From an uncultured Methanosarcinales archaeon (GTDB lineage: Archaea; Nanobdellota; Nanobdellia; Woesearchaeales; ARS49), in contig CAYGVI010000003.1 in NCBI GenBank assembly GCA_964353335.1, forward strand, positions 130,695 through 194,694: DNA of 64,000 bases, read 5' to 3'. A program made the translations under genes and the position numbers. Positions 3,733-34,925 of this stretch are shown one piece after another; position 1 is the stretch's first letter; each line of letters opens with the position of its first letter. Below the pieces are notes generated by a model, which saw nothing but the letters and a program-made list of their open reading frames with translations, did no database searches and had not been told where the DNA came from.

Positions 3733-4070
3733 GCCTGAAATACCTTGCAGGAGCAGTAATTGCAGTCCTTGCCCTTACAACTTACTTTTCAGGCAGTATT
3801 TCAGAAGGATTCATACTCGGCATCTCCCTGATAATGCTTGGGCTGATTCCAGGCTACACTTTGCTTACTTTCCTCATGAAAGACCTTGAAGAGCTTGAAA
3901 AAACAATACTGGGATTCTTCATTGGCATCTGCTCAACTGCAATGCTGTTGTACTACCTTAATTTCATCGGCATTGCAAGCATAAAGCCAGTATTCAGCTA
4001 TGGCATTGGAATAATCTGCCTTGCTTTGCTCGCGGTAAAAAAGTTTAAACAGCCAAAAAAGGTGCAATAA
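3723..4070 (+). CDS. small membrane protein (PGYTL motif), paralog of 1060..1413
   Basis: 115 aa, 3-4 TM; same position relative to a GT-C gene as 1060..1413. Confidence 0.5.
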   Translation: MHMSLKYLAGAVIAVLALTTYFSGSISEGFILGISLIMLGLIPGYTLLTFLMKDLEELEKTILGFFIGICSTAMLLYYLNFIGIASIKPVFSYGIGIICLALLAVKKFKQPKKVQ

Positions 4071-13453: not shown

Positions 13454-13472
13454 TTGACGGCTGACCTGCATA

Positions 13473-13482
13473 ATCTTTATAA
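13473..13482. promoter_or_regulatory. palindromic TATA box (CTTTATAAAG) for divergent GT2 / GT-C genes
   Basis: Lies 25 nt from the leaderless ATG at 13453 on the minus strand and upstream of the SD-containing GTG start at 13529 on the plus strand. Confidence 0.4.
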
Positions 13483-13528
13483 AGCTATGCCTTGTGGAAA
13501 TTCCACTCATAATGACGAGGGGGGCATA

Positions 13529-15139: not shown

Positions 15140-16920
15140 AAACCAACATAAAAATACTGCTGTTAATACTGGTGCTTGCGATTGCATTGCGCCTGCCAAG
15201 CATAAATGACCCTTTGTTTGGTGATGCAATCCAGTTGGAGCGCTGGTTCTGCACAGGACAGTTCTGGTTTACAGATACAGGCCACCCAAGCCTTTTTGGC
15301 TGGCTTACAAATGCTTCATGCATTCTCTTCGGGGTTCATCATTGGGCAATCCGGCTGCCATTTTTGCTTATTTCACTGGCAACCATCCTATTGACTTATT
15401 TTTACGGCAGGAAATTTATTTCAGAAAATGCAGGATTGCTTGCAGCACTGCTTCTTGCAGTAAGCCCGTGGTATGCTGGCGTTGGTATGGGCACAGGTCC
15501 TGATAATTACCTTGTGCTTTTCTTTGCGTTCGGAATCCTTGCATACCGCTCATGGCTAGATACAAAAAGTAAAATACGAATGGCAGTGCTTGCTCTTGCA
15601 TTCGGACTTAGCTTAATCACAAAAAGCGCAGCTGCGCTTTTGCCTGGAATAATTCTCGCGCACCAGCTCTGGCTCATAATCAAAAAACAGCAGAACTGGA
15701 AAGAGACCCTGAAGCTCTGGCCAATGCTGCTTGGATTTGTGATCCCGATTATTTATTACTCAATACAGCAGGCGATGGGCGCCACATTATTCACAAATTA
15801 CACAATACACCGCACTGCAATAAAGCTGATTACTGCAGGAGGATACAGCTTTCCAATATCGTCCTGGGTTCTTGCGGTAGTGATGGCATCCCCTGCATTT
15901 TTCGCACTGCTTGCGCTCATGCTTGCCAGGCGCCCTGACAATGAAAAGCCGCTTCTATGGGCTTGGATTATTATCCCTGCATTTGTTTATTCTTTCCTGA
16001 TAGTCCACAACAATATTGAGCGCTTCCTGCACGTTGCTCTTCCGGCAATGGTCCTGTTGATAAGCGAAGGCATTACCAGCATTAGCAGCAATGAACTGCG
16101 CAATTTTGTCAAAAGAAAATATAATATTTTACTCGGAATTGCTAGCGCCCTTACACTTTTGTTGTCATATTTCCTGCCAAACCCGAACAGTTATGCCACA
16201 CCGTATTATTCAGCTTCTGCATACCTTTCAGCATTGTTAAGCCCCTCAAAATATCTTTTCCCGATAATCAGCGATATTGAGCCAACTTATTATCTGCCGA
16301 TGCTATTTGTAATCTTTTCAGGAATTTTGGCGGTGGCGTGGTTTGCAGCTGCGCTTTACGGAATTTTCACGTACAAAAAACAATTGTTAAAAATGGCGCT
16401 GATTATGCTTCTGGTGACATGTGTTACAACAAACCTCATTGTCCTAGCAGAACAGCATTTGTCAATCAAGGGTCCTGATATTCCTGAGATGGCAAAAGTC
16501 GCTGACAAAGCAATCAGTCAGTATGCTGGAAACAAGTCCCTGCTGATTATTGGAGCCCATCAGGTTGATTACCAATGGCGCAATCAGCCAAAAGGCAGCC
16601 AGTTTTCAGGCAATCCTGCAAACCTGACCTTGCTATTTTTGAGCATAAACCAAACAGAAGCCCAGAAGGAAGGCGGGGTATATGTTGACCCTGTGACAGG
16701 CCTGCGAATCCAGAAATCAGGCATAATTCTGCTGCGCTCTGAAAAGGAATTTGAACTTTTGAAAGAAAAGGCACTGAAAGCTGATTTGGTGCTTTTCGAA
16801 GATTATCCGCCATTGCCAGAATATAATCCGATAAAGCAGGCTATCAGCACTTGTAGAAAGCTTGGAAGCGTCCAGGACAAGGGCTTGGTATTCTCGATGC
16901 ATGCCTGCAAAAGTCCATAA
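15136..16920 (+). CDS. GT-C-fold glycosyltransferase, ArnT/PMT-like, with C-terminal soluble domain
   Basis: 594 aa; RLPFLLISLATILLTYFYGRKF..AVSPWY typical of the ArnT/PMT_2 family; ATGA overlap with the upstream gene. Confidence 0.75.
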   Translation: MKTNIKILLLILVLAIALRLPSINDPLFGDAIQLERWFCTGQFWFTDTGHPSLFGWLTNASCILFGVHHWAIRLPFLLISLATILLTYFYGRKFISENAGLLAALLLAVSPWYAGVGMGTGPDNYLVLFFAFGILAYRSWLDTKSKIRMAVLALAFGLSLITKSAAALLPGIILAHQLWLIIKKQQNWKETLKLWPMLLGFVIPIIYYSIQQAMGATLFTNYTIHRTAIKLITAGGYSFPISSWVLAVVMASPAFFALLALMLARRPDNEKPLLWAWIIIPAFVYSFLIVHNNIERFLHVALPAMVLLISEGITSISSNELRNFVKRKYNILLGIASALTLLLSYFLPNPNSYATPYYSASAYLSALLSPSKYLFPIISDIEPTYYLPMLFVIFSGILAVAWFAAALYGIFTYKKQLLKMALIMLLVTCVTTNLIVLAEQHLSIKGPDIPEMAKVADKAISQYAGNKSLLIIGAHQVDYQWRNQPKGSQFSGNPANLTLLFLSINQTEAQKEGGVYVDPVTGLRIQKSGIILLRSEKEFELLKEKALKADLVLFEDYPPLPEYNPIKQAISTCRKLGSVQDKGLVFSMHACKSP

Positions 16921-17664: not shown

Positions 17665-18371
17665 AAGAATTTGATTATGAAACAATTGACCCCGGATACT
17701 ACCACCGCGCAATGCTGCACGGCAACAAGATACAGAGGTTCTGGCATACCTGGAAGTTTGCCATCGTAGCAGAAAGAATTTCGCATAAAAAAACAACCGT
17801 TGTTGATATTGGGTGCGGTCCTGGCAGTTTTTTTTATGTTCTCAGGAAGAAAAACAAGGATGCAATTCTTATTGGAACTGATTTAATGCTGAAACAATTG
17901 GAATTCGCGAAAACAATAGCACCTGACGCCCACTGGTTTGCCTCTGATGCAACAAAACTCCCTTTAAAGACTGGCGCGATTACTACTTTCACAATGCTTG
18001 AGCTGATTGAGCACCTTCCTTATGCCACAGAGCGTGAAATGCTCGAACAAATTCATAAATCGCTTGCTCCGAATGGCAGGATAATCATCACAACACCCAA
18101 CTATCATTCGTTATGGCCGCTGATTGAATGGTTCTGGAATATCATGTCTCCTGTCAGCTACAAGCACCAGCATATTAACAGAAAGACAATGCCAAAACTT
18201 GCAAGAAGCCTGCACAATGCAGGTTTCAAGGTCGAGAGCATAAAGACATTCTTTGTGCTCTCCCCATTTTTCGCATTTATTTCACCGCGTTTTGCAGAAT
18301 GGCTTTTGCGTATTGAGCAGAAATACCTGCCCGGTCTTGGGGCTTGCATCATTGCAGAGGCAACTGCATGA
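17661..18371 (+). CDS. class I SAM-dependent methyltransferase
   Basis: VVDIGCGPGSF motif I; Methyltransf_11/23-like. Confidence 0.75.
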   Translation: MKEFDYETIDPGYYHRAMLHGNKIQRFWHTWKFAIVAERISHKKTTVVDIGCGPGSFFYVLRKKNKDAILIGTDLMLKQLEFAKTIAPDAHWFASDATKLPLKTGAITTFTMLELIEHLPYATEREMLEQIHKSLAPNGRIIITTPNYHSLWPLIEWFWNIMSPVSYKHQHINRKTMPKLARSLHNAGFKVESIKTFFVLSPFFAFISPRFAEWLLRIEQKYLPGLGACIIAEATA

Positions 18372-20035
18372 GATCGTACCAGATTTTTTGGGTTATTCTT
18401 GCAGTCGCATTATTTCTCCGGGTTTGGACTCTGGGCACGCCGTTCACTTCTGATGAAAATCCCTGGCCTTATGCGGCTGCAGACCATTCAAATGCAGGCT
18501 TTAACTTTGTGATTGACCGCGGTTTTGACACTTTTGTCTGGACATCCCCGCCATTGGCGCCTCTTGCTTACAGGTTTTTCACATGGTTTATCGGCGTGAA
18601 TGAAATAACCATGCGCCTTCTCCCTCTCATTATCGGTCTTATCAACATCTGGCTCACATATTTGCTTGCAAGAAAGTTGTTTGACCCCAAAAGCGCGGTT
18701 TTTGCTGCGGGCTTGATGGCGGTTTCTTTCTGGCACATACTTGCATCATTCCTGATTGAGCATGACAGCTCAATCCTCACACTGTTCTGGCTGCTTTTTT
18801 TCCACAGCTGGCTCTTGTTTGAAACAACAAGAAAGACAAAATGGCTTTTTGGATGCGGAATTGTGCTTGGTCTTGCTTTATTGACAAAGCTCACAGGCGG
18901 CTTGATGCTTATTGCTCTCGCGGTTTACCTTGTCTGGAAGCACGGCTCGCTGAAAGAACCTGCAATCGCTTGCGCAAAAATACTGGGCATAGGCGCGGCA
19001 ATGTTTGCAGTATTCCCTATCCTTTCAATGCTTATTTATCCTGCGTATATCAAGGAGACTTTCATCCATGCAGGCGTGCTCACCTTTATCCCCTCATTGT
19101 TTTCGCCAATAAGAATCATAATTTATCTTCTGCTCTGGGCAACTCCTTTGCTTACTGGCCTTGCTCTCCTGTCTTTGTTTGAGCCTGACAAGCGCGCCAG
19201 GCTTTTGTGGTGCTGGGCAGGCGCAGTGATTTTGTTTTATACTTTGACAAAATACTTTGGCGCCATTGACCGGTATATGGCGGTTATGATTCCTGCGTTG
19301 TGCATTCTTGGAGGGCGTGAGCTGGCAAAGCGCCTTGAATTCAGGGATTTGAAAAAAGTCCTTCTTATTGCCCTGCCGTTCCTTGTATTGTTTATCCTGC
19401 TCAACTTCATTCCAAGCAGCTGGATTGAGCACAACACCGCAACATACATCGGCAAGGCGTTGACTTTTGACTGGGCTTTTATTTTCCAGTTCTGGGGCAG
19501 CGGCGGTCCTGCATTCATGGCATCATTCATTCCATTGGGCGCAGGGATTTTATTGTGCCTGCTTTCATTGGCACTATTCGTTTATGCAATTCATTCGGAA
19601 AAAGAAAAGGCAATTCAGAGGTCTTTTGTTCTTTTTGTCGCGGTTGCTTTGGCATTTAATTTGTTCATTGTTCAGGCTTTTGTCACAAAAGAGCCGTATC
19701 CTGATGTTGGCAGTGCCACAAAAGGGATTATTGCTGAAATGAAAATCCTTCCTGAACCGTTTTACGCAAATGACATGAATCTTGCTTGGTACATTGACCG
19801 CAAGGCAGACTTTTATGTTATCGGCGATGTTTATACTGATGAACAAAAGGAAGTCGACCAATTGAGTGCGATAATCCAACGCAGAGGGGGCACGCTCATA
19901 ATTACTGACTATCCCAAATACTTAAAAACAGACCCGATATGGCAGTTGGCAGGCGAGTGCAAATTGCAGAAGACATTTGGAAGCAAAGAAATCATGCTTG
20001 GTTACGTGTTTGCTTGCCCACCTCATGCAATATGA
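18344..20035 (+). CDS. GT-C-fold glycosyltransferase, ArnT (4-amino-arabinose transferase)/GT39-like
   Basis: 563 aa, about 12 TM; N-terminal loop and TM pattern of the ArnT family (RLLPLIIGLINIWLTYLLARKLF). Confidence 0.8.
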   Translation: MHHCRGNCMRSYQIFWVILAVALFLRVWTLGTPFTSDENPWPYAAADHSNAGFNFVIDRGFDTFVWTSPPLAPLAYRFFTWFIGVNEITMRLLPLIIGLINIWLTYLLARKLFDPKSAVFAAGLMAVSFWHILASFLIEHDSSILTLFWLLFFHSWLLFETTRKTKWLFGCGIVLGLALLTKLTGGLMLIALAVYLVWKHGSLKEPAIACAKILGIGAAMFAVFPILSMLIYPAYIKETFIHAGVLTFIPSLFSPIRIIIYLLLWATPLLTGLALLSLFEPDKRARLLWCWAGAVILFYTLTKYFGAIDRYMAVMIPALCILGGRELAKRLEFRDLKKVLLIALPFLVLFILLNFIPSSWIEHNTATYIGKALTFDWAFIFQFWGSGGPAFMASFIPLGAGILLCLLSLALFVYAIHSEKEKAIQRSFVLFVAVALAFNLFIVQAFVTKEPYPDVGSATKGIIAEMKILPEPFYANDMNLAWYIDRKADFYVIGDVYTDEQKEVDQLSAIIQRRGGTLIITDYPKYLKTDPIWQLAGECKLQKTFGSKEIMLGYVFACPPHAI

Positions 20036-20553
20036 AAAAGCTTAATGTTGGCTGCGGAAATGACATAAAGCAAGGATGGACTAATCTTGATTTCAAACGC
20101 ATTTCAGGGGTTGATGTTGTCCAGGATATCAACAAGACCCCCTGGCCATTCAAGGCAAACTCATTTGATGAAGTATTATGCCAGGATGTGCTTGAGCATT
20201 CAGATGATGTCATCTCTGTTATGAATGAGATTCACAGGATTCTCAAGCCAAATGGAATTGTTCTCATCAGAGTTCCTCATTTTACAAGCGCAGGAGCATT
20301 CACTGACCCGACCCACAGGCACTTTTTCGGTTGGGGCTCATTCAATTATTTCCAAAAAGCGAGCAAATATCATTATTACGCAGATTTCTCTTTTGAAATT
20401 GTAAAAAGGAAGCTTGAGTTCGGCAAAAAGTTTGCAATATGGAATTGGCTTGTTCAACCGTTAGTTAACCTTATGCCAATGGTTTATGAAAGTACGCCCC
20501 TGAGGATATTCCCTGCAATGAACCTTCACTTTGCCCTGCGCAAGCCAAAGTGA
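20032..20553 (+). CDS. class I SAM-dependent methyltransferase (Methyltransf_11)
   Basis: MKKLNVGCGND...LKPNGIVLIRVPH. Start at ATG 20032 overlaps the upstream stop (ATGA); the track ORF 19939 start gives a 97-nt overlap. Confidence 0.75.
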   Translation: MKKLNVGCGNDIKQGWTNLDFKRISGVDVVQDINKTPWPFKANSFDEVLCQDVLEHSDDVISVMNEIHRILKPNGIVLIRVPHFTSAGAFTDPTHRHFFGWGSFNYFQKASKYHYYADFSFEIVKRKLEFGKKFAIWNWLVQPLVNLMPMVYESTPLRIFPAMNLHFALRKPK

Positions 20554-22025
20554 GATGCAATCCAAGCGATTTCTTCCCTGCTGACGATTTTCAGCGCAAG
20601 CAAAAGCAGGCAGTATGCAATTCCGCCTGCAAAAGCGCCGATAGCAAGTTCAATCCACGGGTTTAATGACAGCAATGCCTTTACCCCTGAAATTATTCCT
20701 GCAAGGATTATTGCTGCAAGAAGTGTCTTTGCCCAGACCACCCATGGCTCGCGGATTCTCAAAATCCGTCTTATTCCGCGCGAACTAAGCGCAAGCATGA
20801 GCAAATAGCTGAGCGATGTTCCGCAGGCAGCGCCGATTATGCCAAAACGCGGGACAAGCGCGAGATTAAGAATTACATTTGCAACTGCTGAAATGAGCAT
20901 TATTGTTGTGGTGTATTTGGGCCTGCCAAGGCCGAAAAGCGCATTAAGGTTTGTGTAAGCAATAGAGTAAAGCACCATGCCACCCGCAAGAATCTGGAGT
21001 GCAGGCGCTGAATTGATGAATTTGTCCCCAAAAAACAGCCTGATAAAAATTTCAGGGAATGCAATAAGAACCACTGCCATTGGAATTATTGCAATAAACA
21101 CATACTTGTGCAGGAATTCTATTCCTTTTCTCAATTGAATCCGCTTTTTTAGCGCGAGCAGTTCTGATATCAGCGGTGTGGCAACTGCAGATACTGAATA
21201 CGCAACATAAAGCACAAGCCCTGCAAGAGGCGCCGCAACCTGATAAAGTCCGACGCTTGCCAGGTCCTTGAAATAACTGAGCATTAGTGTGTCTGTGTAT
21301 TGCAGGACATTATTGCCGAAAATTGTAAGCATTGCCGGAAGCCCGAAAAGGATAAGGCGGGAAAAGTCCTGTCCTGCAAGCAGTGCGTGCGCTTTCCAGA
21401 ATTGTTTGAACACTTTTTTTGTGAACAGGAAGAAAAAGAACAAAAATACAACCACATACATTATCAGGTAAGCCCAGACCGGTGCAAGAATGCCAAAACC
21501 AAGCCATAAAAGCACAAAAGAAATTGCAAGCACAACAAGGTTTCTCGACAGGTCCTGCAATGAATAAAGAAACATCCTTTGGAAACTCTGTAATCCAATA
21601 GAAACAACATTTTGGGCAAAAGAAACAAAAAATATTATGGCAAATAAAATCAATAATTTGGTATCGCTTGTGTGAAAGAATGTAGGCATTATTTGAGGGG
21701 CAAATGTTATCAGCAGGAATGCAATGATTGCTGAGGAAAACAACTGTATAAGGAAGCTTGATGAAATCAGCGATTTTATCCTGTTCCAGTCTTTTTTGAC
21801 AATAAGCTCTGGAATGAATTTCAGCAGTGCATATCCCTGCCCAAGGTCCTTGAACAAGACCAGCAGGTTTATGAAAGAAAATAATGCGAAGAAAAGCCCG
21901 TAGTCTTCAATGCTGAGTTTCCTTGCGAGCAAAAACCTGAGAAAATACGCGGACAATGCCGCCATAAGTGTAAGAACAAAGACAGTTGCTGCGCCATGAA
22001 GCGCTTTTTTTGCATAAGACACCAT
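20526..22025 (-). CDS. Wzx/MOP-family polysaccharide flippase
   Basis: 499 aa, about 14 TM; typical polysaccharide biosynthesis protein C-terminal architecture. Confidence 0.8.
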   Translation of the reverse strand: MVSYAKKALHGAATVFVLTLMAALSAYFLRFLLARKLSIEDYGLFFALFSFINLLVLFKDLGQGYALLKFIPELIVKKDWNRIKSLISSSFLIQLFSSAIIAFLLITFAPQIMPTFFHTSDTKLLILFAIIFFVSFAQNVVSIGLQSFQRMFLYSLQDLSRNLVVLAISFVLLWLGFGILAPVWAYLIMYVVVFLFFFFLFTKKVFKQFWKAHALLAGQDFSRLILFGLPAMLTIFGNNVLQYTDTLMLSYFKDLASVGLYQVAAPLAGLVLYVAYSVSAVATPLISELLALKKRIQLRKGIEFLHKYVFIAIIPMAVVLIAFPEIFIRLFFGDKFINSAPALQILAGGMVLYSIAYTNLNALFGLGRPKYTTTIMLISAVANVILNLALVPRFGIIGAACGTSLSYLLMLALSSRGIRRILRIREPWVVWAKTLLAAIILAGIISGVKALLSLNPWIELAIGAFAGGIAYCLLLLALKIVSREEIAWIASHFGLRRAK

Positions 22026-22061
22026 GCACCCAAGTCCGTGAATATGCTATATAAAGATTAT

Positions 22062-22258
22062 GGACGACCACAACATTTTAAAACAGGGTCTGGCTTGCCT
22101 TCAGTCGTGGAAGAGCAGCCAAAGAAAGTGTGGAACTGGCAAGTCAAGGCAGCCATTATTGCAGTTATACTGTATCTCGGGGTTGCGCTGTCCTTGTACA
22201 TGAAGCTAAAGCACCTGCCCGGGCCTTATTATGGCGGAGACCTTTATGCCCACCATGG
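22062..22258 (+). repeat. direct repeat copy L (truncated 5' fragment of gene 26747..28540), about 95% identical to 26768..26964
   Basis: Nucleotide identity visible directly (ggacgaccacaacattttaaaa ... tttatgcccaccatgg). Encodes GRPQHFK..VEEQPKKVWNWQVKAAIIAVILYLGVALSLYMKLKHLPGPYYGGDLYAHHG, then diverges and stops. Confidence 0.85.
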
Positions 22259-22408
22259 GTTTTGTGCTTGAAAAAATCTGTGTAGTAATGGCAGGTGGAT
22301 CCTGCGAATCAAGGGTGATTTAACACATTTAGCTTTTTAGCCGTTGCTGATCATTTGCCTGTCAGCAAAGCAAGCGTTACTGCTTATTTATGCAAATCGC
22401 ATAGAAAA

Positions 22409-23927: not shown

Positions 23928-23993
23928 TGATGATATGCCCTTGGGAATCCTTTATAAAATTATCCCTTTTTGGCAGGGGAAGAAAAATCAGGC

Positions 23994-25714: not shown

Positions 25715-25815
25715 ACCACCATCAATGCGTTACGTACTGTTGTTTTTAAATCTTATTAACTTATAGGGGAGGGAAATACGAAAGCTTAAAAGAGAAGGTC
25801 AACGTGTGATTGAAC

Positions 25816-26394
25816 ATGAACAGAGCAGTTTTCCTGGACCGTGATGGTGTCATTAACAGAAACCTTCCTAATCTGGTGAGCGAGAAACAGTTTGAATTGG
25901 TAAGTGATTCGGTGCCTGCAGCAGTAAAACGCGCAAAAGAGGCAGGATACCGTGTAATTATTATAACAAATCAGCCTGTAATTGCAAAAGGCTTCTGCAC
26001 AAGGGAGGATGTTGAGCGCATACACGAGCATATGAAATCAATTCTTGCAGCAAAAGGTGCGCGTATTGATGCAATCTATGTCTGTCCGCATCATCCTGAG
26101 AAAGGTTTTGCTGGCGAGGTTAAGGCGCTCAAAATAGACTGTGACTGCCGCAAGCCAAAGCCAGGGCTGATACTTCAGGCGGCAAAAGAGCACCAGATTG
26201 ACCTGGGCAATTCCTGGATGATTGGCGACTCTGTTGTTGATGTTGCGGCGGGCAAGGCAGCAGGAGTAAGAACAATACTTCTGGCCGGAAGCGAAAATGG
26301 CAGCAAGGATGAAAAGCGCATAACTGCAGTCCCTGATTTTCAAGCCATTGACATTAATGAAGCGGTTTCTATTGTGCTGAACAATCATACATAA
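25816..26394 (+). CDS. gmhB: D,D-heptose 1,7-bisphosphate phosphatase (HAD, histidinol-phosphatase family)
   Basis: AVFLDRDGVIN (HAD motif I) and the GmhB zinc motif CPHHP...CDCRKPKPG. Confidence 0.85.
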   Translation: MNRAVFLDRDGVINRNLPNLVSEKQFELVSDSVPAAVKRAKEAGYRVIIITNQPVIAKGFCTREDVERIHEHMKSILAAKGARIDAIYVCPHHPEKGFAGEVKALKIDCDCRKPKPGLILQAAKEHQIDLGNSWMIGDSVVDVAAGKAAGVRTILLAGSENGSKDEKRITAVPDFQAIDINEAVSIVLNNHT

Positions 26395-26426
26395 TCTTTA
26401 AATACGTTCTCTGTGAGTTTTATTGC

Positions 26427-26648: not shown

Positions 26649-26746
26649 CGCTGCAAGAAGCAAAAGGACCAACAATGTTGCCGTGAAGCGCTCGGCAGGT
26701 ATATGAAACCATATTCTAATTGCCGTTCACACAATATATACCGAGT

Positions 26747-28540
26747 ATGGATAAGGCGTGCAGCTTCGGACGACCACAACATTTTAAAATAGGGTCTGGC
26801 TTGCGTTTGGCTGTGGAAGAGCAGCCAAAGAAAGTGTGGAACTGGCAAGTCAAGGCAGCCATTATTGCAGTTATACTGTATCTCGGGGTTGCGCTGTCCT
26901 TGTACATGAAGCTGAAGCACCTGCCCGGCCCTTATTATGGCGGCGACCTTTATGCCCACCATGGATTTGCGCTCAACTACATGGCAAACGGTTTCTGGAG
27001 CGACCCGTATTTCATCAATAATTACTCATTTTATCCCTGGCTTGGCAACTACATATTCATCGCGCTCAACCTTTTGCCAGGCATAACTGTGTTAAAGGCT
27101 GAAATGTTTGTCGGGCTTGCCACAACAATACTCTCAGCAATTGCATATTATTTTCTTGGAAGGCAGCTTTTCAAGAGCGACACCTGGGCGCTTGTGCTTA
27201 TGCTCTTCTCGCTTGTCACAAGAGGGATTCCTGACGGCGCGCCCAACCTTGTGCCATGGATGATTACGATTCCTTTCTGGTTTGCCTTCTGGCTCAAGGC
27301 AGAGGAAACAGGAAAACTGCGCGACAAGGCTCTTGCAGGATTGTTCATGGGCCTTACAAGCCTTGCCCACGTGGCATTTTTTCTTGCGGGAATGGCGGTT
27401 TTTGCTTTTACAGCAGTGGTTGAGACTTTAAAGCAGAAAGACAAGAAGCAAGCAGTTGTTGCCGCGTTCAGGCTGTATGCTCCAATGCTCATAGTCGGAT
27501 TTTTCGTGTCCCTACTGTTCTATGGACCGATAATTATCAATTATCATGCAAAGACCCTTAACCCGCTTTTCCAGTACAATGGCACTGACATTGACAACCT
27601 TGGAATTGGCTGGGTGATCAAGACGCTTTGGAACGCGACACTTAACTTTTCCTCAATTCCCGCCGCAGTCCTTAGCATACTCAGCATTATCGGGCTTGTG
27701 GTCTGCATGATGAACTGGAACAAGAAAGCGCCAAGATATGCTGTGCTTTGGTATATCGCAGGCTTTCTTGCGCCGCTGCACCACATTATCACAAGGCCTT
27801 TGCTTGGCAGGTGGATACTTCCATCACACCTCTTTGCGCTTGCCCTTCCATTGCTGATATTCGCAGTCTACGGTGTCCGCGCTGTTGAACAGTTCGCAGC
27901 CAGAAAATCCCCCAATTCGAAGCGCATTGTCGCGATTGGAGTCATAATCCTTGTGCTCCTCCTGTTCTGGCAGCGCTATAATGACTACAATGCAAATCCA
28001 TGGGTGCAGTTTGGCCAGCGCCTTGACCCTTCAACACAGGCATGGATGTCATTTGGGGTGTGGATGGAGAAAAACACAGGCATTAATGACGTTGTGCTGA
28101 GCAATGACGAGACATGCTTTGCGATGAACGGCATGAGCGGAAGAAAATGCGTATTTGTGCGCAGGACTCACGCGAACTACTTTGTTGATGTTGAGCAGAG
28201 GTATGCAGACGGAGTTGTGATGCTCTATGGCAACAACAGCGCTTTGACAAGCAGGCTTCTTGGCGATTACAAGGTGGACTATGTGCTTATTGACGCATAC
28301 ATGCAGCAGCAGCCTGTGCTTTTGGACGCGAAGTTTGAACAGTATTTGCTTGATAACAATGTAACATTCACAAAGATACGCGAGCGCAAAGACCTTTCAG
28401 TCCCTGATGCAAAAGTGTTTGACCTTCTTGCTGTTCCTTTCCAGCAGATTAACAAGGCGCTTGAGTCAAAGCTCAGCCCTGCCACAGAAGCAAATATCGG
28501 CACACAGGCGTATCTCAAGCTGTACAGGATAAATAGGTAA
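26747..28540 (+). CDS. large polytopic membrane protein, putative GT-C-like glycosyltransferase/polymerase
   Basis: About 598 aa, >10 TM with soluble C-terminal region; N-terminal TM AAIIAVILYLGVALSLYM. The start (ATG 26747 or the GTG of VWNW) is uncertain. Confidence 0.5.
   Translation: MDKACSFGRPQHFKIGSGLRLAVEEQPKKVWNWQVKAAIIAVILYLGVALSLYMKLKHLPGPYYGGDLYAHHGFALNYMANGFWSDPYFINNYSFYPWLGNYIFIALNLLPGITVLKAEMFVGLATTILSAIAYYFLGRQLFKSDTWALVLMLFSLVTRGIPDGAPNLVPWMITIPFWFAFWLKAEETGKLRDKALAGLFMGLTSLAHVAFFLAGMAVFAFTAVVETLKQKDKKQAVVAAFRLYAPMLIVGFFVSLLFYGPIIINYHAKTLNPLFQYNGTDIDNLGIGWVIKTLWNATLNFSSIPAAVLSILSIIGLVVCMMNWNKKAPRYAVLWYIAGFLAPLHHIITRPLLGRWILPSHLFALALPLLIFAVYGVRAVEQFAARKSPNSKRIVAIGVIILVLLLFWQRYNDYNANPWVQFGQRLDPSTQAWMSFGVWMEKNTGINDVVLSNDETCFAMNGMSGRKCVFVRRTHANYFVDVEQRYADGVVMLYGNNSALTSRLLGDYKVDYVLIDAYMQQQPVLLDAKFEQYLLDNNVTFTKIRERKDLSVPDAKVFDLLAVPFQQINKALESKLSPATEANIGTQAYLKLYRINR
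26768..26964 (+). repeat. direct repeat copy R (inside the 5' end of gene 26747..28540)
   Basis: About 95% identical to 22062..22258. Confidence 0.85.
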
Positions 28541-28584
28541 TCCATAAGCTTTTTAAGCATCCTGCAAGGAGCACAAATAGAAAA

Positions 28585-29631
28585 ATGGCACAAAAACAAC
28601 TTACATTCCTTATTACCGGCGGGGCAGGATTTCTCGGCCACAACCTTGCACGATATCTGTTAAAGAAAGGCTGCAAAGTAAGGACAGTTGACCTGGGTGA
28701 TTTTGATTATCCTGACATAAAGGGAGTACAGCACTTCAAGGGGGACATAAGAAACAAGGAAATACTGCGAAAGGCAGCAGCAGGTGTGGACAGTATTGTG
28801 CACGCAGCTGCAGGACTGCCTTTATGGAAGCCCGCTGAAATACGCTCTGTCAACATAAACGGCATCAAGGCAGTATTTGCTGTTGCTGAGGAGCTTGGAA
28901 TTGAGCGCGTTGTGCACATCTCAAGCACTGCTGTTTACGGAATCCCTGACCACCATCCTCTTTACGAAAATGACAGGCTTGTGGGAGTCGGTCCATATGG
29001 CGAGAGCAAGGTTGCTGCTGAAAAAATTGCAGAATCTTTCAGGAACAGGATGTGCGTCCCAATCCTCAGGCCCAAATCATTCATTGGCGCAGGGCGCCTC
29101 GGCGTATTTGACGTTCTTTTTGACTGGGTAAGGCGCGGAAAAAACATTCCAATGGTCGGCTGGGGAAACAATCTCTACCAGCTTTTGCATGTTGAGGATT
29201 TGAACCAAGCAATCTGGCTTGCATCAACAAAGCCGGCGAAGATTGCGAATGACACTTTCAATGTCGGCGCTGAAAAATTCAGCACAATGAAAAAAGACTA
29301 TCAGGCATTGCTCAACTATGCAGGCTTTCACAAGCGCGTGATAGGGACTCCGCCCTGGCTTGTGATTAACACTCTCAGGATTCTTGAAAAGCTCAAGCTC
29401 TCGCCCTTGTACAGGTGGGTTTATGAGACAGCTGATAAGGATTCTTTTGTTTCGATAGACAAAGCAAAGAAAGTGCTCGGCTTCAGGCCAAAGTACAGCA
29501 ATGTTGATGCCCTGATTGACAGCTACAAGTGGTATTTGCAGCACTACAAGGAATACCAGGGCAAAACAGGAGTCACGCACAGGGTTCCTTGGAAGCAGGG
29601 CATCCTGTCCATAGTAAGATGGTTTTTCTAA
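28585..29631 (+). CDS. NAD-dependent epimerase/dehydratase (extended SDR)
   Basis: ITGGAGFLGHNL (GxxGxxG) and YGESK (YxxxK). Confidence 0.85.
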   Translation: MAQKQLTFLITGGAGFLGHNLARYLLKKGCKVRTVDLGDFDYPDIKGVQHFKGDIRNKEILRKAAAGVDSIVHAAAGLPLWKPAEIRSVNINGIKAVFAVAEELGIERVVHISSTAVYGIPDHHPLYENDRLVGVGPYGESKVAAEKIAESFRNRMCVPILRPKSFIGAGRLGVFDVLFDWVRRGKNIPMVGWGNNLYQLLHVEDLNQAIWLASTKPAKIANDTFNVGAEKFSTMKKDYQALLNYAGFHKRVIGTPPWLVINTLRILEKLKLSPLYRWVYETADKDSFVSIDKAKKVLGFRPKYSNVDALIDSYKWYLQHYKEYQGKTGVTHRVPWKQGILSIVRWFF

Positions 29632-30560
29632 TGCGGAGAAATCATTTCTTTCGCATACTTTGAGCATGGTGAGTGCCAGGTTTTCCACATTGCTTCCCTG
29701 AATGGCGTGTACCTGACTCCAAACTCATCCCACCAGTTCTCAACAGCGAATTCGTCTCCTGCGACAAGAGCCCTCATCTGGTCTGGAGTAAAGACTGTCT
29801 TGCGGAAAACAAAGCTGTAAACCCGCAAAAGGAATCCGAAAAGCCACAATGGAAGCGGAATAAACAGCCTGTGCCATCCGCGTGTCTTTGCAATTATCCT
29901 TAGCAAATCAATGTATGGTATTTTTTCCCTGCCAATAATGTTATGAATTTTGTTCTCAGGCTTTCTTTTGGTCAGCTCAACAATCACATTGCACATATCA
30001 TTGACAAACAAGGGCTGCCTCACATATTTTCCAGAGCCAGGCACAGGGACTACTGGTATTTTTTCCATAAAACGGGTTATCCAGCCAAGGTGTTTTGCAT
30101 CAAAGCAGCCAAACATCAGCGGCGGCCTCAAAATTGTGTGCGGAACCCTGCTCTTGTGCACAAGCTCTTCGCCAATGCGCTTTGTCCTTGTGTATTCGTC
30201 TTTTGCGACAGAGATGACAACAGATGAGCTTATGTGGATTAGGTTCTTCACATTGTACTTTTTGCAGAGCTCAAGCACATTGCTGACTCCTTCAATGTTG
30301 CTTCGTTCAAAAGGCGCGGATGACTGCGCCGCGATTTGCGCGTGAAGCTCAATAACACAGTCAGCGCCTTCAAATTCCTTTTCCCACTTTCCAGGATAAC
30401 TGACATCTGTCTGGACGCAGTTTACTTTCTTGTTAAGGCGCTGCAGGAGATTTATGTTTGAATTCCGGTCTATTGCGGTTATTTTGTATCCCTGCCTGAC
30501 AAGCATTGGCATCAGATTCTGCCCTACAAGCCCTGCTGCTCCTGTGACAATTACTTTCAT
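29628..30560 (-). CDS. NAD-dependent epimerase/dehydratase (extended SDR)
   Basis: VTGAAGLVGQNL and YTRTK catalytic motif. Confidence 0.8.
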   Translation of the reverse strand: MKVIVTGAAGLVGQNLMPMLVRQGYKITAIDRNSNINLLQRLNKKVNCVQTDVSYPGKWEKEFEGADCVIELHAQIAAQSSAPFERSNIEGVSNVLELCKKYNVKNLIHISSSVVISVAKDEYTRTKRIGEELVHKSRVPHTILRPPLMFGCFDAKHLGWITRFMEKIPVVPVPGSGKYVRQPLFVNDMCNVIVELTKRKPENKIHNIIGREKIPYIDLLRIIAKTRGWHRLFIPLPLWLFGFLLRVYSFVFRKTVFTPDQMRALVAGDEFAVENWWDEFGVRYTPFREAMWKTWHSPCSKYAKEMISPH

Positions 30561-31828
30561 TTTAAGTCCTCGAGGACATATTGCGCTGCTTTTTCTCCGC
30601 TGTCAAGCGCGACGTCCATGTTCCTTATCTTTGGAAATGTCACCTGGATTCCTGCATTGTACAATCCTGCGACAGGTGTCCTGTATTTTGGCGCGTACTT
30701 TGCGTAGTCCTTGTCATAAATCGGCTCTGCATACTTGTCTTTGAAAACAAGGCAGAACTTCACGTCCATTTTCGGGAAGTATTTTCTCAGGACGCCCAAA
30801 TAGAGGTCCTTGATTTCCTCGTCTGACTTTGGCAAATCCTCTGCAGAGCCGCCATAGCGGTCAACCCATGTGATTTTTGTTTTGTACCTGTCTATAAGCA
30901 AGGAGTGCTGGTACATCACGTGCACGCGCTCGCCAAAGAAATTTATCCAGTAATTTTCAGGGTCAAGGTAATCTTTTGTGCCAAACAATATTCCGACAAC
31001 AGGAGTATAATGCAGTTTTTTGATGTCATCAGCATATTCTTTTGGCAGTCCTTTTGTGAAATGCGCAAATTCCTGCACAGGGATTGTGTTAATTAGAGCG
31101 TCATAGACCTCTGTGTGCTCTTTTCCGCCAACTTCGTATGTTATGACCTTTTTCTGGACATTCAGGCTGGTTGTTTCTGCCTTCCTGATGATTTTTCCGC
31201 CCTTTCTCAGCACATCCTGCTCAAGCCCGTCAATAACTCCCTGTATTCCGCGGGTTGGATATGTGAATTTGTCATTGAACTCGCGCTCTTTCATCCTGTT
31301 CGCAAACTGCTTTGCAGAAATCTGGCTCAACGGAATGTTGAATTTGTTCCTCGCATACAATTGGTAGTGCATTTTTTGCGTTACAGACTTTCCGCATGCC
31401 TTATTCAGCCAGGTTTCTGCGTCAAGATCATCAGGAAGCTTGTCTGGGTTGAAGAGATAAGAGACATAAAGCCCGAAAAGGCCGAACCTTATCTTGTCAA
31501 TAAGATTCAGATAATTGAACCTGAGATATTTCCAGGGCTTATTTATGTTGTAAACCCTGTTTTTCCACGCGATTGCAAGATTGATGCGCTTCCAAACATT
31601 ATTGCCGAGCAAATCATACCGCTTCAGGTACTCGAGCGTCTTTTTGTTTGTGCGGACAATGTGATGGTTGAAAATTGGTATCTGCTCGCCATCAACCTCA
31701 ACGCTTCTCGCAAGCCCGCCAAGGAAAGGCATTTTCTCAAGTATTGTAACCTCTGCCTTTCCGGAATCAAGCAGTTTGTCTGCTGCTGCAAGGCCTGACA
31801 ATCCCCCCCCAAGTATGATGGCTCGCAT
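30557..31828 (-). CDS. Rossmann FAD-dependent oxidoreductase (amine-oxidase/PPOX/Glf-like)
   Basis: ILGGGLSGLAAADKL dinucleotide-binding motif at the N-terminus; 423 aa. Confidence 0.7.
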   Translation of the reverse strand: MRAIILGGGLSGLAAADKLLDSGKAEVTILEKMPFLGGLARSVEVDGEQIPIFNHHIVRTNKKTLEYLKRYDLLGNNVWKRINLAIAWKNRVYNINKPWKYLRFNYLNLIDKIRFGLFGLYVSYLFNPDKLPDDLDAETWLNKACGKSVTQKMHYQLYARNKFNIPLSQISAKQFANRMKEREFNDKFTYPTRGIQGVIDGLEQDVLRKGGKIIRKAETTSLNVQKKVITYEVGGKEHTEVYDALINTIPVQEFAHFTKGLPKEYADDIKKLHYTPVVGILFGTKDYLDPENYWINFFGERVHVMYQHSLLIDRYKTKITWVDRYGGSAEDLPKSDEEIKDLYLGVLRKYFPKMDVKFCLVFKDKYAEPIYDKDYAKYAPKYRTPVAGLYNAGIQVTFPKIRNMDVALDSGEKAAQYVLEDLK

Positions 31829-31880
31829 GGATTTACCGATTAGTGAAGAATTTATAAAACTATCGTAGTTATCGTCGGAA

Positions 31881-31943
31881 ACACAAGCAGCGGCCGACGG
31901 AGTCGTCCCGCTTGTGCTTCGCTCAGCACAAGCTTAATAAACC
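31881..31943 (+). repeat. about 60-nt promoter-proximal repeated element, copy A (upstream of ubiA-like gene)
   Basis: agcggccgacggagtcgtcc..gctt..hairpin..gcacaagcttaataaa; compare copy B. Confidence 0.6.
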
Positions 31944-31963
31944 CTCCGCCTGTCGCAAAACAC

Positions 31964-32827
31964 ATGGCAATCATTGATTACGTAAAAGTGCTCAGGCCTT
32001 TGCAGTGGTACAAGAATTTGCTTGTCTTCCTGCCGCTCATATTTGTAGGCAGGCTTATGGAATTGAACCTTGTCTGGCTGGCATTTCTCGGATTTGTGAG
32101 CCTTTGCCTGTGCGCCTCATTCAACTACATCATAAATGACATTGTTGACAGGAAAAAAGACAGGGCGCACCCTGAAAAGCGCACAAGGCCGATTGCCGCA
32201 GGAAAAATTTCAGTAATCACAGCGCTCATTTGGGGAATTTTACTGCTTGCTGCGGGGCTTTATCTTGCGTTCAGTCTTAACAGGAATTTCTTTTACGCAG
32301 CAGGATTTATTGTTGTTCTCACACAGATGTACTCATTCCTCCTGAAGAGGATTGCATTTGCAGACATTCTTACTGTCGCGATTAATTTTGTAGTTCGCGC
32401 AATATCCGGGGCGTTCATTATCGGTGTAATTATTTCACCCTGGCTTGTGCTTTGCACGTTCTTTTTTGCGCTTTTCCTGCTTTCCGGAAAGCGATACGCA
32501 GACCTTGCCCTACTTGGCTCAAAGGCTGCAATGCACAAGGAAACACTCAAAGTTTACACAAAAGAGGTCGCAAACGCATTAATGATTGTTGCAACTGCAT
32601 TGCTGATTGTTGCATACGGCGCTTTTGCACTGCTCGGAACCCACCCTCAGCTCGCATTTTCCCTTCCTTTTGCCCTGTTTGTAATTTTCAGGTATTTCTC
32701 ATTGATTTATGTGGGCTCGCCAATCGCGCGCCATCCAGAGCTTGTTTTCAGGGACTGGAAAATGCTTGTTGGAATGCTCCTCTGGGCAATTGCAACATTT
32801 ATTGCGCTGTATGTTTATCCGAAATGA
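31964..32827 (+). CDS. UbiA-family prenyltransferase resembling decaprenyl-phosphate phosphoribosyltransferase (DPPR synthase)
   Basis: NDIVDRKKDRAHPEKRTRPIAAG: this NDxxDxxxD..HPxKRxRPIAAG signature is the one recalled for Rv3806c-type phosphoribosyltransferases, not the DGGGP-synthase signature. About 8 TM. Confidence 0.7.
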   Translation: MAIIDYVKVLRPLQWYKNLLVFLPLIFVGRLMELNLVWLAFLGFVSLCLCASFNYIINDIVDRKKDRAHPEKRTRPIAAGKISVITALIWGILLLAAGLYLAFSLNRNFFYAAGFIVVLTQMYSFLLKRIAFADILTVAINFVVRAISGAFIIGVIISPWLVLCTFFFALFLLSGKRYADLALLGSKAAMHKETLKVYTKEVANALMIVATALLIVAYGAFALLGTHPQLAFSLPFALFVIFRYFSLIYVGSPIARHPELVFRDWKMLVGMLLWAIATFIALYVYPK

Positions 32828-33115: not shown

Positions 33116-34195
33116 TTAAATCTCAACAACAATATCCGCAGTCGCCTCATTTATCTCAAGAATTTGCGAGAACTTCGCTTTTACTTCCTTCCAACTGAGT
33201 TTTTTCTTTGCCTCGACTATTTCATCGAGCAATTTCTTGATTTCCTGATAGTGCTCGTAAATGTATTCGCCTTTTTTGCGCTCTTCCACTGATTTTTGTT
33301 CAAGCTGCGCCAGGTTCTGCTGCTGGACTGCTATCATTGTCTCAACTTTCTGCAGCTGCGTGCTTGTCGGAGCGAGCTTCTGCTCCTTCACAGCTTCTGC
33401 AGGAAGGGCAAATATCCTGTCAAGTGCGCTGCCAAAGCTTTCAACATTCTCCCTTTTCTTGGCAGAATAGCAGTCAAATGGTATTGGAGTTGCGTCAGAG
33501 ACAATGCTTCCTTCGTAAATCAGCTGAGGAGATATTTTTTTCACAAGAAGTTCGTGCAAAATGCGGAAAATGTCATCTGCGTGCTCTTTTTTCACAGGCT
33601 CTGCAGCAGGAATTCCGCATCGTACGCAAAGCTCTTCTGCCAAAACCTTGCCCAAGCCGAACTGGACAGCCAAAGTCTTTGAAATATTGTCCTTGCTCTC
33701 TGCGAATTTCTCTGCGAATTCCCGTGAGTCAAGGTGGAATGTGTCAATGCTTTTGGGCAATTGATAAGCCTTGCCGCGCTGCACCCTGTCATTAAGCGCT
33801 AGCACAGTAATCACAATGCCTTCTCCGTCGCAAAGCACAACATTTCCCCTTCCAAACACCTCTAGATACAGGATAAACTGCTTTTCAGACCTTGTTACGT
33901 GTATTGCGATTATCCTTTCAGAACAAACCTGCTCTATTTTGCTTATCCTGCTGTTTCCTATCAGTTTCCTTAGCTGGGCTGCAAAGGGATGTATCTGTTC
34001 TGGCGTCGCAGGCCTTTGAAGCGGAGTCCAGCACTTGCCTGGCCCTGCCTGGAGCATTATTTTCACGCCAAAAGTGATAAGGATTCCGCGGTCTTCGAGA
34101 ACATAAATCTTGTCAAGCCTCTCATTTGCCAATGGCTGAAGCTCTTGCAAAAGAAAATGCAGGTCAAAAGCGGTTATTTCGGTTTTCATCATCAT
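33116..34195 (-). CDS. NFACT-N domain protein (Rqc2/NEMF/FbpA N-terminal homologue), short form
   Basis: MKTEITAFDLHFLLQELQPLANERLDKIYV matches the NFACT-N N-terminus; followed by coiled coil, but the gene ends without an NFACT-R domain. Confidence 0.55.
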   Translation of the reverse strand: MMMKTEITAFDLHFLLQELQPLANERLDKIYVLEDRGILITFGVKIMLQAGPGKCWTPLQRPATPEQIHPFAAQLRKLIGNSRISKIEQVCSERIIAIHVTRSEKQFILYLEVFGRGNVVLCDGEGIVITVLALNDRVQRGKAYQLPKSIDTFHLDSREFAEKFAESKDNISKTLAVQFGLGKVLAEELCVRCGIPAAEPVKKEHADDIFRILHELLVKKISPQLIYEGSIVSDATPIPFDCYSAKKRENVESFGSALDRIFALPAEAVKEQKLAPTSTQLQKVETMIAVQQQNLAQLEQKSVEERKKGEYIYEHYQEIKKLLDEIVEAKKKLSWKEVKAKFSQILEINEATADIVVEI

Positions 34196-34566
34196 GCTCT
34201 GCCAAGTCCTATCAGCACAACACCAAGCAGTATCCAAGCGATTCCAATCCACTTGCTCCTGTTCATCTTTTCATTAAGCATTTTTGTGGACCACAGGCAG
34301 GTCCATATGTACGTGACAGATGTGATTGGGTAAAGAACTGAAAGCTCGCCATGCCTGAGCCCCCATACAAAAAATATTGCTGAAATGCCGAAAAGCCCAC
34401 ACCCTATTATTGCATTGTAGTTTTTCAGGATAATCATTGGGTTCTTGAGTATTTTTATCGGGTTAATCGTGAATTTTTCAGCGCCTTTTTTCATGAAAAT
34501 AGGTCCAAGTGCTCCTATTAGCGTTCCCAAAAGAACAAGCCCTACTCCAAGCAAGTCAGTAGTCAT
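34192..34566 (-). CDS. EamA/DMT 4-TM half-transporter (ArnE/ArnF-like)
   Basis: 124 aa, 4 TM; pattern VLYPITSVTYIW...GIAWILLGVVLIG as in ArnE/ArnF. Confidence 0.65.
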   Translation of the reverse strand: MTTDLLGVGLVLLGTLIGALGPIFMKKGAEKFTINPIKILKNPMIILKNYNAIIGCGLFGISAIFFVWGLRHGELSVLYPITSVTYIWTCLWSTKMLNEKMNRSKWIGIAWILLGVVLIGLGRA

Positions 34567-34925
34567 GGTGTGACCACCTGGCCGTGCTTGTGAGACCCTC
34601 TTCCTATCATCACAACGCCAACTATTACTGCTGCCATTCCTGCGAACTTGAACCCATTAAGCGGCTCTGCGAGATAAAGTGCTGAAAGGATGCTTACCCA
34701 GATGTAATTTGTTGCATACATCGGATAAAGCACAGAAACCTCTCCTCCCTTGAATGAAACTATCAGGAGTGCTGCTGCGATTACATATGTGCCTAATGCG
34801 ACCATCAGAGGGGTATTGGTAACAAGCTCAGGAAGCCTCATTGCGCCGAATTTCCACATAAGCTGGCCGACAGAAGTGATAATTGTGCAAAAAAGAATCA
34901 ACAAAATTGACTTGAGCTGGGTCAT
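34563..34925 (-). CDS. EamA/DMT 4-TM half-transporter (ArnE/ArnF-like), partner of 34192..34566
   Basis: 120 aa, 4 TM; SVLYPMYATNYIWVSILSALYLAEP..AGMAAVIVGVVMIG. Confidence 0.65.
   Translation of the reverse strand: MTQLKSILLILFCTIITSVGQLMWKFGAMRLPELVTNTPLMVALGTYVIAAALLIVSFKGGEVSVLYPMYATNYIWVSILSALYLAEPLNGFKFAGMAAVIVGVVMIGRGSHKHGQVVTP

Follow-up and report, generated by a model that had tools for sequence, protein, structure and literature searches.

What does a UbiA-superfamily gene do in an archaeal genome when its immediate neighbors encode a flavoprotein, two short-chain dehydrogenases/reductases (SDRs) and a membrane protein? The question is raised by five open reading frames (ORFs) at positions 26720-32827 of a 64-kb stretch of contig CAYGVI010000003.1 (hereafter the window, meaning the whole of that stretch). 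The window is archaeal, with an Archaea_SRP RNA present, and its nearest relatives are metagenome-assembled genomes (MAGs) of Woesearchaeota/Nanoarchaeia; the exact UbiA protein was also found on metagenome contigs. An initial annotation, made without database searches, had read the five ORFs as a possible pathway for a lipid-linked pentofuranose. All five are present, and this remains the best reading: what sequence comparison favors, on balance, is that a DPANN archaeon of the Woesearchaeota type has an archaeal version of the "three-component" system for lipid-linked pentofuranose glycosylation. The elements concerned are the following (aa, amino acids; PRPP, phosphoribosyl pyrophosphate).

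26747..28540, + strand: GT-C-fold membrane glycosyltransferase with a C-terminal alpha/beta domain (fold predicted with AlphaFold), 597 aa if read from the ATG, 606 aa if read from the TTG at 26720 with which the ORF opens
28585..29631, + strand: SDR1, extended SDR of the epimerase/dehydratase family, 348 aa (Pfam Epimerase, 5e-36)
29628..30560, - strand: SDR2, a 310-aa extended SDR that partners the flavoprotein (Pfam Epimerase, 5.5e-26)
30557..31828, - strand: FAD-dependent oxidoreductase (the flavoprotein) of the PRK07233 family, with a protoporphyrinogen oxidase (PPOX)/phytoene-desaturase/amine-oxidase fold, 423 aa (Pfam Amino_oxidase; NCBIfam PRK07233, just under its cutoff)
31829..31963, no strand: divergent intergenic spacer between the FAD-SDR2 operon and the UbiA gene, 135 bp (read from the sequence)
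31964..32827, + strand: predicted UbiA-superfamily polyprenyl-phosphate phosphoribosyltransferase (PPPRS), like decaprenyl-phosphate phosphoribosyltransferase (DPPRS), 287 aa (NCBIfam, alignment to PDB 8j8j)
32135..32203, + strand: motif NDIVDRKKDRAHPEKRTRPIAAG, the putative Mg2+/PRPP-pyrophosphate-binding loop CL1 (translation; aligns to Rv3806c N73-G95, with N73, D77, K87 and R90)

A predicted phosphoribosyltransferase and its system

The UbiA protein matches Pfam UbiA (PF01040) with 96 bits (cutoff 34; E 2e-27). Its top four NCBIfam matches are three DPPRS models (187, 164, and 127 bits) and the HAD-PPPRS fusion model PRK08238 (168 bits), whereas digeranylgeranylglyceryl phosphate (DGGGP) synthase reaches 31 bits (cutoffs 296 and 353) and the DGGGP synthase, UbiA, MenA-type, and heme O synthase models all stay at or below 45 bits. 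Among solved structures, the best match is Mycobacterium tuberculosis Rv3806c (PDB 8j8j; E 1.3e-28, full length); AfUbiA follows at 5e-6.

Residues of Rv3806c that bind decaprenyl phosphate, Mg2+, and PRPP have been shown by Gao et al. (PMC10994848), who also note that the phosphoribose-binding residues (5-phosphate, K/R-cluster) are not conserved in true prenyltransferases; a match at these residues therefore separates a phosphoribosyltransferase from a prenyltransferase. When the substrate-binding residues were transferred through a HMMER alignment, the UbiA protein was found to keep 10 of 13 (R22, K28, Y70, N73, D77, K87, R90, Q135, Y138, K143, Y157, K191, and K208): its R11, K17, Y55, N58, D62, K72, R75, Y123, K128, and K176 correspond to R22, K28, Y70, N73, D77, K87, R90, Y138, K143, and K191, respectively. 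At Y157, the protein has F, a tolerated change that is known from some mycobacteria (PMC10994848); Q135 is replaced by T with a Q one position after, and K208 by E with a K one position before. The CL1 loop on which the initial annotation had based its assignment is encoded exactly where it was placed, and the assignment itself is borne out: the data support an enzyme of the Rv3806c/DPPRS type, predicted to be a PRPP-dependent phosphoribosyltransferase and not of the DGGGP-synthase type. On profile scores, structure matches, and conserved residues, the reading as a prenyltransferase, DGGGP synthase included, was rejected.

Mycobacterial cell walls, a drug target, are one setting in which lipid-linked pentofuranose donors are known. 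In 2024, such donors were also described for Gram-negative O antigens (Kelly et al., PMC11127046). Experiments in Citrobacter established that undecaprenyl-P-ribofuranose is formed from PRPP by a UbiA-type synthase and flipped by a MATE or SMR protein, after which a GT-C enzyme adds the sugar to the O antigen; the SDR ORF13 turns lipid-linked ribose into xylofuranose, and DprE1/E2 homologs accompany glycans that contain arabinofuranose (PMC11127046). The pathway has so far been demonstrated in bacteria only. Citrobacter youngae ORF12-15 (PMC11127046) and the window have in common the UbiA-type synthase, the GT-C enzyme, the option of a small-transporter flippase (MATE or SMR; in the window a candidate), and an optional cytoplasmic extended-SDR epimerase for the conversion of ribofuranose to another pentofuranose. 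The window cluster differs in being archaeal, in a synthase without a fused HAD phosphoribose-phosphatase domain, in two SDRs and a PRK07233 flavoprotein instead of one SDR, in a GT-C enzyme without detectable sequence kinship to anything characterized, and in a lipid carrier that is presumably dolichyl-type.

Under the mechanism proposed here, the UbiA enzyme would move 5-phosphoribose from PRPP to polyprenyl or dolichyl phosphate at the cytoplasmic face, as its homology and binding residues suggest. The 5-phosphate would then be removed; in other archaea, a PHP-domain protein adjoins UbiA. A membrane-peripheral flavoprotein and SDR2, together with SDR1, may remodel the lipid-linked ribofuranose to another pentofuranose, a step suggested by linkage that is conserved between Archaea and Bacteria; candidate products are xylo-, arabino-, or lyxofuranose or a keto or other derivative. 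An ArnE/F-like EamA pair would flip the lipid-linked sugar outward, and an AftA/STT3-like GT-C enzyme, so classed from its modeled fold, would attach the sugar, outside the cell, to a glycan or glycoprotein of the surface. If this is true, archaeal surfaces carry unrecognized pentofuranose sugars, including those of host-dependent DPANN cells, whose surface chemistry governs host attachment; a conserved flavoprotein/SDR pair is flagged that is also present in culturable Rhizobium and Burkholderia; and culturable archaea with compact versions are identified as genetic systems.

Scanning of GTDB species genomes with the UbiA protein returned at least 580 matching stretches; at the 80 best loci, to which the context counts refer, every ORF up to 6 kb from the UbiA gene was included in a clustering. 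Represented among these loci are Woese-, Pace-, Aenigm-, Micr-, Parv-, and Altiarchaeota, Thor- and Hermodarchaeota, Methanobacteriota, and uncultured bacterial lineages, as well as Paenibacillus and the cultured Methanolobus bombayensis and Halalkalicoccus paucihalophilus. Recurrent neighbors are GT2 glycosyltransferases (37 of 80 loci, at a median distance of 2.6 kb), DUF362 proteins (24 loci, 46 bp), extended SDRs (20 loci, 1.5 kb), PHP-domain phosphoesterases (17 loci, 106 bp), PMT_2-type GT-C enzymes (16 loci, 137 bp), small EamA pairs (12 loci, 1.1 kb), LPG_synthase_TM proteins (11 loci, 0.7 kb), and the flavoprotein (about 10 loci, 1.1 kb). These data suggest that the UbiA-type synthase is widespread in Archaea, with a PHP phosphoesterase, DUF362, EamA pairs, and the PRK07233 flavoprotein as the archaeal accessory set.

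Two other Nanoarchaeia/Woesearchaeota MAGs (L003 and L004) have these five genes in synteny, and the arrangement SDR-FAD-SDR-UbiA was found again in a Pacearchaeota MAG (L052). An SDR1 ortholog (50% identity) occurs in a plasmid cluster of Halostagnicola larsenii XH-48, in the order LPG_synthase_TM / PHP / DPPRS and, divergently, SDR / GT-C. The recurrence of this linkage in the three MAGs and on proteobacterial (see below) and haloarchaeal replicons argues that the five-gene grouping is not a product of chance. H. larsenii XH-48, H. paucihalophilus (L078), and M. bombayensis (L053) all carry a member of the same UbiA clade (34-38% identity) with an adjacent GT-C gene, and the two haloarchaea among them have an SDR1 ortholog (50-52%). 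Compared with the window, the compact haloarchaeal and methanogen clusters add PHP and LPG_synthase_TM genes, are without the flavoprotein/SDR2 pair, and have a GT-C enzyme of the PMT_2 type.

The initial annotation had also suggested that the archaeal pathway might be undescribed. This holds insofar as no paper on an archaeal or DPANN DPPRS or arabinofuranose system was found in the literature searched, an incomplete collection; it does not hold for the general system, described in bacteria (PMC11127046), nor for the enzyme's name, as closer archaeal homologs are already called "decaprenyl-phosphate phosphoribosyltransferase" by NCBI. A literature search for the mycobacterial methylthioxylose genes gave nothing of use.

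Two further observations concern the 80 loci. A membrane protein of the LPG_synthase_TM family recurs beside UbiA/PHP genes (L053, L078, L091, and eight other loci) and may be a flippase or a lipid-modifying enzyme. Several Paenibacillus spp. (L050, L055, L057, L061, L066, L076, and L081) have, beside GlmS-like genes, a UbiA protein that is 37-41% identical to this otherwise mostly archaeal clade; these members may reflect inter-domain transfer.

The flavoprotein, its SDR partners, and the sugar

The flavoprotein matches Pfam Amino_oxidase (E 1e-31) and, over its full length (residues 1-421), NCBIfam PRK07233 with 245.5 bits; HpnE scores far lower. Fold matches of its AlphaFold model (pLDDT 93.7) are PPOX, plant phytoene desaturase, the uncharacterized archaeal PF1083 and 3ka7, and monoamine oxidases. 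The initial annotation had named beforehand two findings that would speak against it, a firm grouping of the UbiA protein with DGGGP synthases and a flavoprotein that is a UDP-galactopyranose mutase (Glf), and neither was observed. The flavoprotein is not such a mutase: there is no GLF Pfam domain, TIGR00031 scores 23.5 bits (cutoff 304), and no such mutase is among the top 50 fold matches. Similarity to these mutases in the PDB is confined to the N-terminal FAD-binding stretch.

Both SDRs belong to Pfam Epimerase (PF01370) and are of the extended type, with intact GxxGxxG and YxxxK motifs. Across archaeal and bacterial orthologs of SDR2, the GxxGxxG motif, D31, S111-113, and Y123-x3-K127 are invariant. 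By sequence, the nearest solved relatives of SDR2 are membrane-peripheral SDRs of the NDUFA9 type, and the best NCBIfam matches of SDR1 are the lipid-acting HpnA and OleD. The best named relatives of the two (HpnA, OleD, NSDHL, and NDUFA9) thus act on lipids or sit on membranes, which fits lipid-anchored substrates.

A tblastn search of 72,556 plasmids with the flavoprotein gave six matches, all bacterial. The four plasmids inspected (from Rhizobium tumorigenes, Agrobacterium salinitolerans, Rhodobacteraceae SC52, and Burkholderia stagnalis) share one operon, which encodes HAD-UbiA (PRK08238, 523 bits), DprE1-like (369) and DprE2-like (168 bits) proteins, an extended SDR, a PRK07233 flavoprotein (511 bits), and GtrA. 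The flavoprotein of this operon is 24.7% identical to that of the window and matches the same NCBIfam family; the adjoining SDR of R. tumorigenes is 37.6% identical to SDR2 (E 1e-72). The operon and the window therefore have in common SDR2 and flavoprotein orthologs adjacent to each other and to a PPPRS, whereas DprE1/E2 homologs, a fused HAD phosphatase, and a GtrA-type transporter (an EamA pair in the window) are features of the operon. No published function for it was found in the literature searched. Additionally, an SDR1 ortholog (35%) occurs in Rhizobium sp. CCGE531, in the order SDR / SMR / SMR-like / GMC oxidoreductase / 658-aa protein / oxidoreductase / HAD-UbiA; the CCGE531 accession is one of the additional three-component systems listed by Kelly et al. 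(PMC11127046), who describe some as "more elaborate" in having several epimerases.

The coexistence of the flavoprotein/SDR2 pair with DprE1/E2 in the proteobacterial operons makes an arabinose-type replacement of DprE1/E2 less likely, and the pair probably carries out a different modification. Tentatively, and with a confidence well short of even, we propose that the flavoprotein and SDR2 work on polyprenyl-phosphate-linked pentofuranose as a second two-enzyme system, one that is independent of DprE1/DprE2 and conserved from DPANN to proteobacteria. Its product might be a sugar new to glycans, for example D-lyxofuranose, if another epimerase takes part, or a pentofuranose with a keto group or some other modification. 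The place of the SDRs would be filled in other archaea by two DUF362 (LarA-clan) proteins. Were this so, DPANN archaea would decorate their surface with a novel pentofuranose.

The initial annotation had drawn a closer analogy with decaprenylphosphoryl arabinose (DPA) synthesis, in which the flavoprotein would oxidize C2' of polyprenyl-P-ribose and an SDR would reduce the product to polyprenyl-P-arabinofuranose; the two would be non-orthologous substitutes for DprE1/DprE2, and GT-C enzymes would then transfer the arabinose. The mycobacterial pathway (Rv3806c, Rv3807c, DprE1/DprE2, Rv3789, and Aft/Emb) does have a homologous first enzyme, the best structural match of the GT-C protein is the DPA-dependent AftA, and lipid-P-ribose, redox remodeling, and GT-C transfer form a common logic in which a flavoprotein and an SDR match DprE1 and DprE2. 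Nor were homologs of DprE1 or DprE2 found in the 64-kb window by tblastn (with DprE1/DprE2-like queries from Rhizobium), and the same holds for GtrA, PHP, DUF362, and LPG_synthase_TM. However, the flavoprotein is of another superfamily than DprE1 and lacks its VAO-type FAD_binding_4 domain, both SDRs are of the extended type (310-348 aa) rather than classical and of ~250 aa like DprE2, and the PAP2 phosphatase of the mycobacterial pathway was not seen among the window ORFs examined. The analogy is weakened above all by the plasmid operons, in four of four of which orthologs of the pair adjoin DprE1-like and DprE2-like genes; we regard it as improbable, and the sugar cannot be called arabinose.

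It is likewise improbable that the flavoprotein and the SDRs tailor the lipid carrier, by isoprene (de)saturation or polyprenol/dolichol-type redox chemistry, and that the sugar is plain ribofuranose. Resemblance of the flavoprotein to phytoene desaturase, PPOX, and HpnE would fit such a role, as would the lipid-acting or membrane-sited relatives of the SDRs and a marine module (L083, below) with a GT2-type polyprenyl-P-sugar synthase and not UbiA. Yet the flavoprotein is an accessory, present at about one in eight of the UbiA loci; in bacteria that use ordinary undecaprenyl phosphate, the genes lie between DprE2 and GtrA in the PPPRS operon, the position expected of a sugar-modifying step; and an SDR acting on lipid-linked ribose has a direct precedent in ORF13 (PMC11127046).

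Archaeal partners of the flavoprotein were always either SDR2 and SDR1 (the window, L003, L004, and L052) or two DUF362 proteins (L012, L013, L014, L020, and L024), with L008 mixed. Of three archaeal flavoprotein homologs examined (50-54% identity), those of L086 and L087 lie 1-2 kb from UbiA, beside DUF362. The DUF362 proteins (~346-360 aa, often two per locus) are found directly beside UbiA and stand in for the SDRs as flavoprotein partners (L012, L013, L014, L020, L024, L086, L087, L008, and L053 are examples). DUF362 and the N-terminal domain of the LarA racemase/epimerase belong to a common Pfam clan (PMC11770544), so that DUF362 may be an unrecognized epimerase or redox enzyme for lipid-linked sugars.

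Proposed transfer, flipping, and dephosphorylation

The membrane protein has no significant Pfam or NCBIfam match and no sequence match in the PDB. Its homologs form ~40 clusters, nearly all unnamed; the named ones are from Woesearchaeota, and a few distant ones contain PMT_2 or DUF6541. An AlphaFold model built with 30 homologs (pLDDT 91.7, pTM 0.89) has a GT-C fold, as the initial annotation had expected from the sequence, and on this model the protein is a GT-C enzyme. Of the solved structures, that of the arabinofuranosyltransferase AftA comes closest; its slim lead among GT-C fold matches is suggestive only. An invariant Asp (D67, in GGDLY) is located in the first external loop. The gene lies 3.4 kb from the UbiA gene, and only the SDR and FAD genes intervene.

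Relative to L003, the enzymes and housekeeping neighbors of the window are 93-98% identical in amino acid sequence (95-98% for genes that flank the EamA pair), whereas identity falls to 74% for the GT-C protein, 56% and 43% for the EamA pair, and 56% for a MOP flippase encoded upstream. Such strong divergence of these three is the pattern expected for glycan-specific surface machinery and suggests allelic replacement or diversifying selection. GT-C proteins of the same family (29-33% identity) occur in L083, L086, and L087. The order in L083, from marine DPANN, is S-layer gene / STT3 / GT-C / SDR2 ortholog / FAD / PpgS-like GT2 / EamA pair / SDR1 ortholog. In L083-L085 (marine DPANN contigs from Saanich Inlet and others), the set stands directly downstream of the S-layer gene and of a 1145-aa STT3 fused to rotamase (PPIase) domains, and the PpgS-like GT2, of the polyprenyl-P-GalNAc synthase family (200 bits), takes the place of UbiA.

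Two candidates for the flippase lie outside the five genes (TM, transmembrane segments):

34192..34925, - strand: pair of overlapping genes for small EamA/SMR-like proteins with 4 TM (124 and 120 aa), candidate flippase (best NCBIfam matches ArnE/ArnF)
20526..22025, - strand: MOP/Wzx-type flippase, 499 aa, possibly of the same system (Pfam Polysacc_synt, MurJ, MatE; synteny in L003, L004, and L052)

The EamA pair is located 1.4 kb downstream of UbiA, past a 5S rRNA gene and an NFACT gene; its best NCBIfam matches are ArnE and ArnF, at ~30 bits and under cutoff. EamA pairs lie directly beside UbiA or SDR genes in L008, L009, and L083, and the pair in the window appears the likeliest flippase of the lipid-linked sugar. 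The Arn pathway (ArnC, ArnE/ArnF, and ArnT) offers a parallel in that the pair is nearest to ArnE/ArnF and the window GT-C protein is structurally related to ArnT; it differs in that the Arn donor is made from a UDP-sugar by a GT2 enzyme and the sugar is a pyranose, and the ArnE/F similarity is weak. The MOP flippase, upstream of the cluster, directly abuts the GT-C gene in relatives without the heptose cassette described below, and is possibly part of the same module.

Removal of the 5-phosphate was addressed by Pfam searches on ~40 window ORFs and by tblastn. The candidates in the window, namely a GmhB-like HAD protein, a weak DHHA1 protein, and a type I phosphodiesterase, were rejected, as none is linked to the module; a phosphatase may be encoded elsewhere in the genome. 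A PHP phosphoesterase of ~220-260 aa adjoins the archaeal UbiA/DPPRS gene at 17 loci (among them L013, L020, L024, L008, L053, and L091), and is a candidate non-orthologous replacement of the ribose-5-phosphate phosphatase (Rv3807c or the HAD PRP domain).

Several findings weigh against a pentofuranose system of the kind proposed. The DPPRS scores of the UbiA protein fall under the curated cutoffs (234, 207, and 474, respectively), as do all its other NCBIfam matches, and the flavoprotein is under the PRK07233 cutoff of 252. Members of the PPOX/phytoene desaturase/monoamine oxidase fold family typically dehydrogenate C-C or C-N bonds of hydrophobic substrates, not sugar hydroxyls. No PAP2 phosphatase, which the initial annotation had proposed to look for nearby, was seen among the ORFs examined in the 64-kb window, nor was a PHP, DUF362, fused HAD, or dedicated phosphoribose phosphatase; the sole HAD phosphatase (GmhB-like, 25810..26394) is part of an inserted heptose cassette that is missing in the closest relatives. 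The 5S rRNA and NFACT genes split the EamA pair from UbiA, and the order NFACT-EamA-SecDF recurs in Woesearchaeota and could be plain synteny. Finally, L083 has the GT-C/SDR2/FAD/EamA/SDR1 set with the PpgS-like GT2 and no UbiA within 7 kb.

We consider it very unlikely that the five genes are mere neighbors in a large mosaic glycan island, with no joint function. With at least five GT-C genes, two MOP flippases, several genes for GT2 enzymes, and a cassette inserted into it, the island does leave membership of the module unproven for any single GT-C gene, but the same families are linked again in distant archaea and in proteobacteria. Least credible of all is a UbiA protein with an ordinary prenyltransferase role (as DGGGP synthase, for quinone, or the like) in an isoprenoid-lipid pathway unrelated to glycans: Pfam UbiA membership, the label "4-hydroxybenzoate polyprenyltransferase" given to UbiA homologs by JGI pipelines, and HpnA-/HpnE-like top matches that could hint at triterpenoid-type chemistry are outweighed by the prenyltransferase scores, by the conserved PRPP-specific residues, and by the glycosyltransferases, GT-C enzymes, and flippases that neighbor UbiA over the 80 loci.

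Gene layout and surroundings

SDR1 and SDR2 are convergent and overlap by 4 nt, and the start of SDR2 overlaps the stop of the flavoprotein gene, also by 4 nt. The spacer between the flavoprotein and UbiA genes contains two A/T-rich TATA-like boxes, TTTATAAAA at 31851-31859 and TTAATAAA at 31933-31940, each ~25 nt before a start codon; these are putative promoters. Between the boxes (31878-31933), a 9-11-nt element occurs three times (GAAACACAAGC / GCTTGTGCTTC / AGCACAAGC) as inverted repeats, which may be the site of a regulator or have arisen by chance. A solitary 5S rRNA gene (32911-33023) begins 84 nt past the UbiA stop, with no 16S or 23S rRNA gene within the 64-kb window.

The five-gene cluster forms the end of a 33-kb surface-glycan island (window 1-33000). 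Its GT-C-type genes, at least five, are at 2104..3732 (DUF6541/PMT_2), 13454..15139, 15136..16920, 18344..20035, and 26747..28540. The island also encodes a GT9 heptosyltransferase (4070..5134), an asparagine-synthase-like protein, and a B12-binding radical SAM protein (11079..12434), and further contains several GT2 and methyltransferase genes as well as the two MOP flippases.

A duplication (21840-22262 and 26553-26968) comprises the spacer upstream of the GT-C gene and the 5' end of that gene, with a 201-nt core (22062-22262 and 26768-26968) that is 95% identical; of the two copies, the upstream one is a gene fragment of 91 aa (21996..22271). The two copies flank a 4.3-kb cassette (22263-26552) with genes for a methyltransferase-like protein, a GtrB-like GT2, an HddA-like kinase, an HddC-like nucleotidyltransferase, and a GmhB-like phosphatase, corresponding to a GDP-heptose route. 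L003 and L004, the closest relatives, do not have this cassette, and in them the start of the flippase gene abuts that of the GT-C gene. Logan contigs with this locus end inside the repeat.

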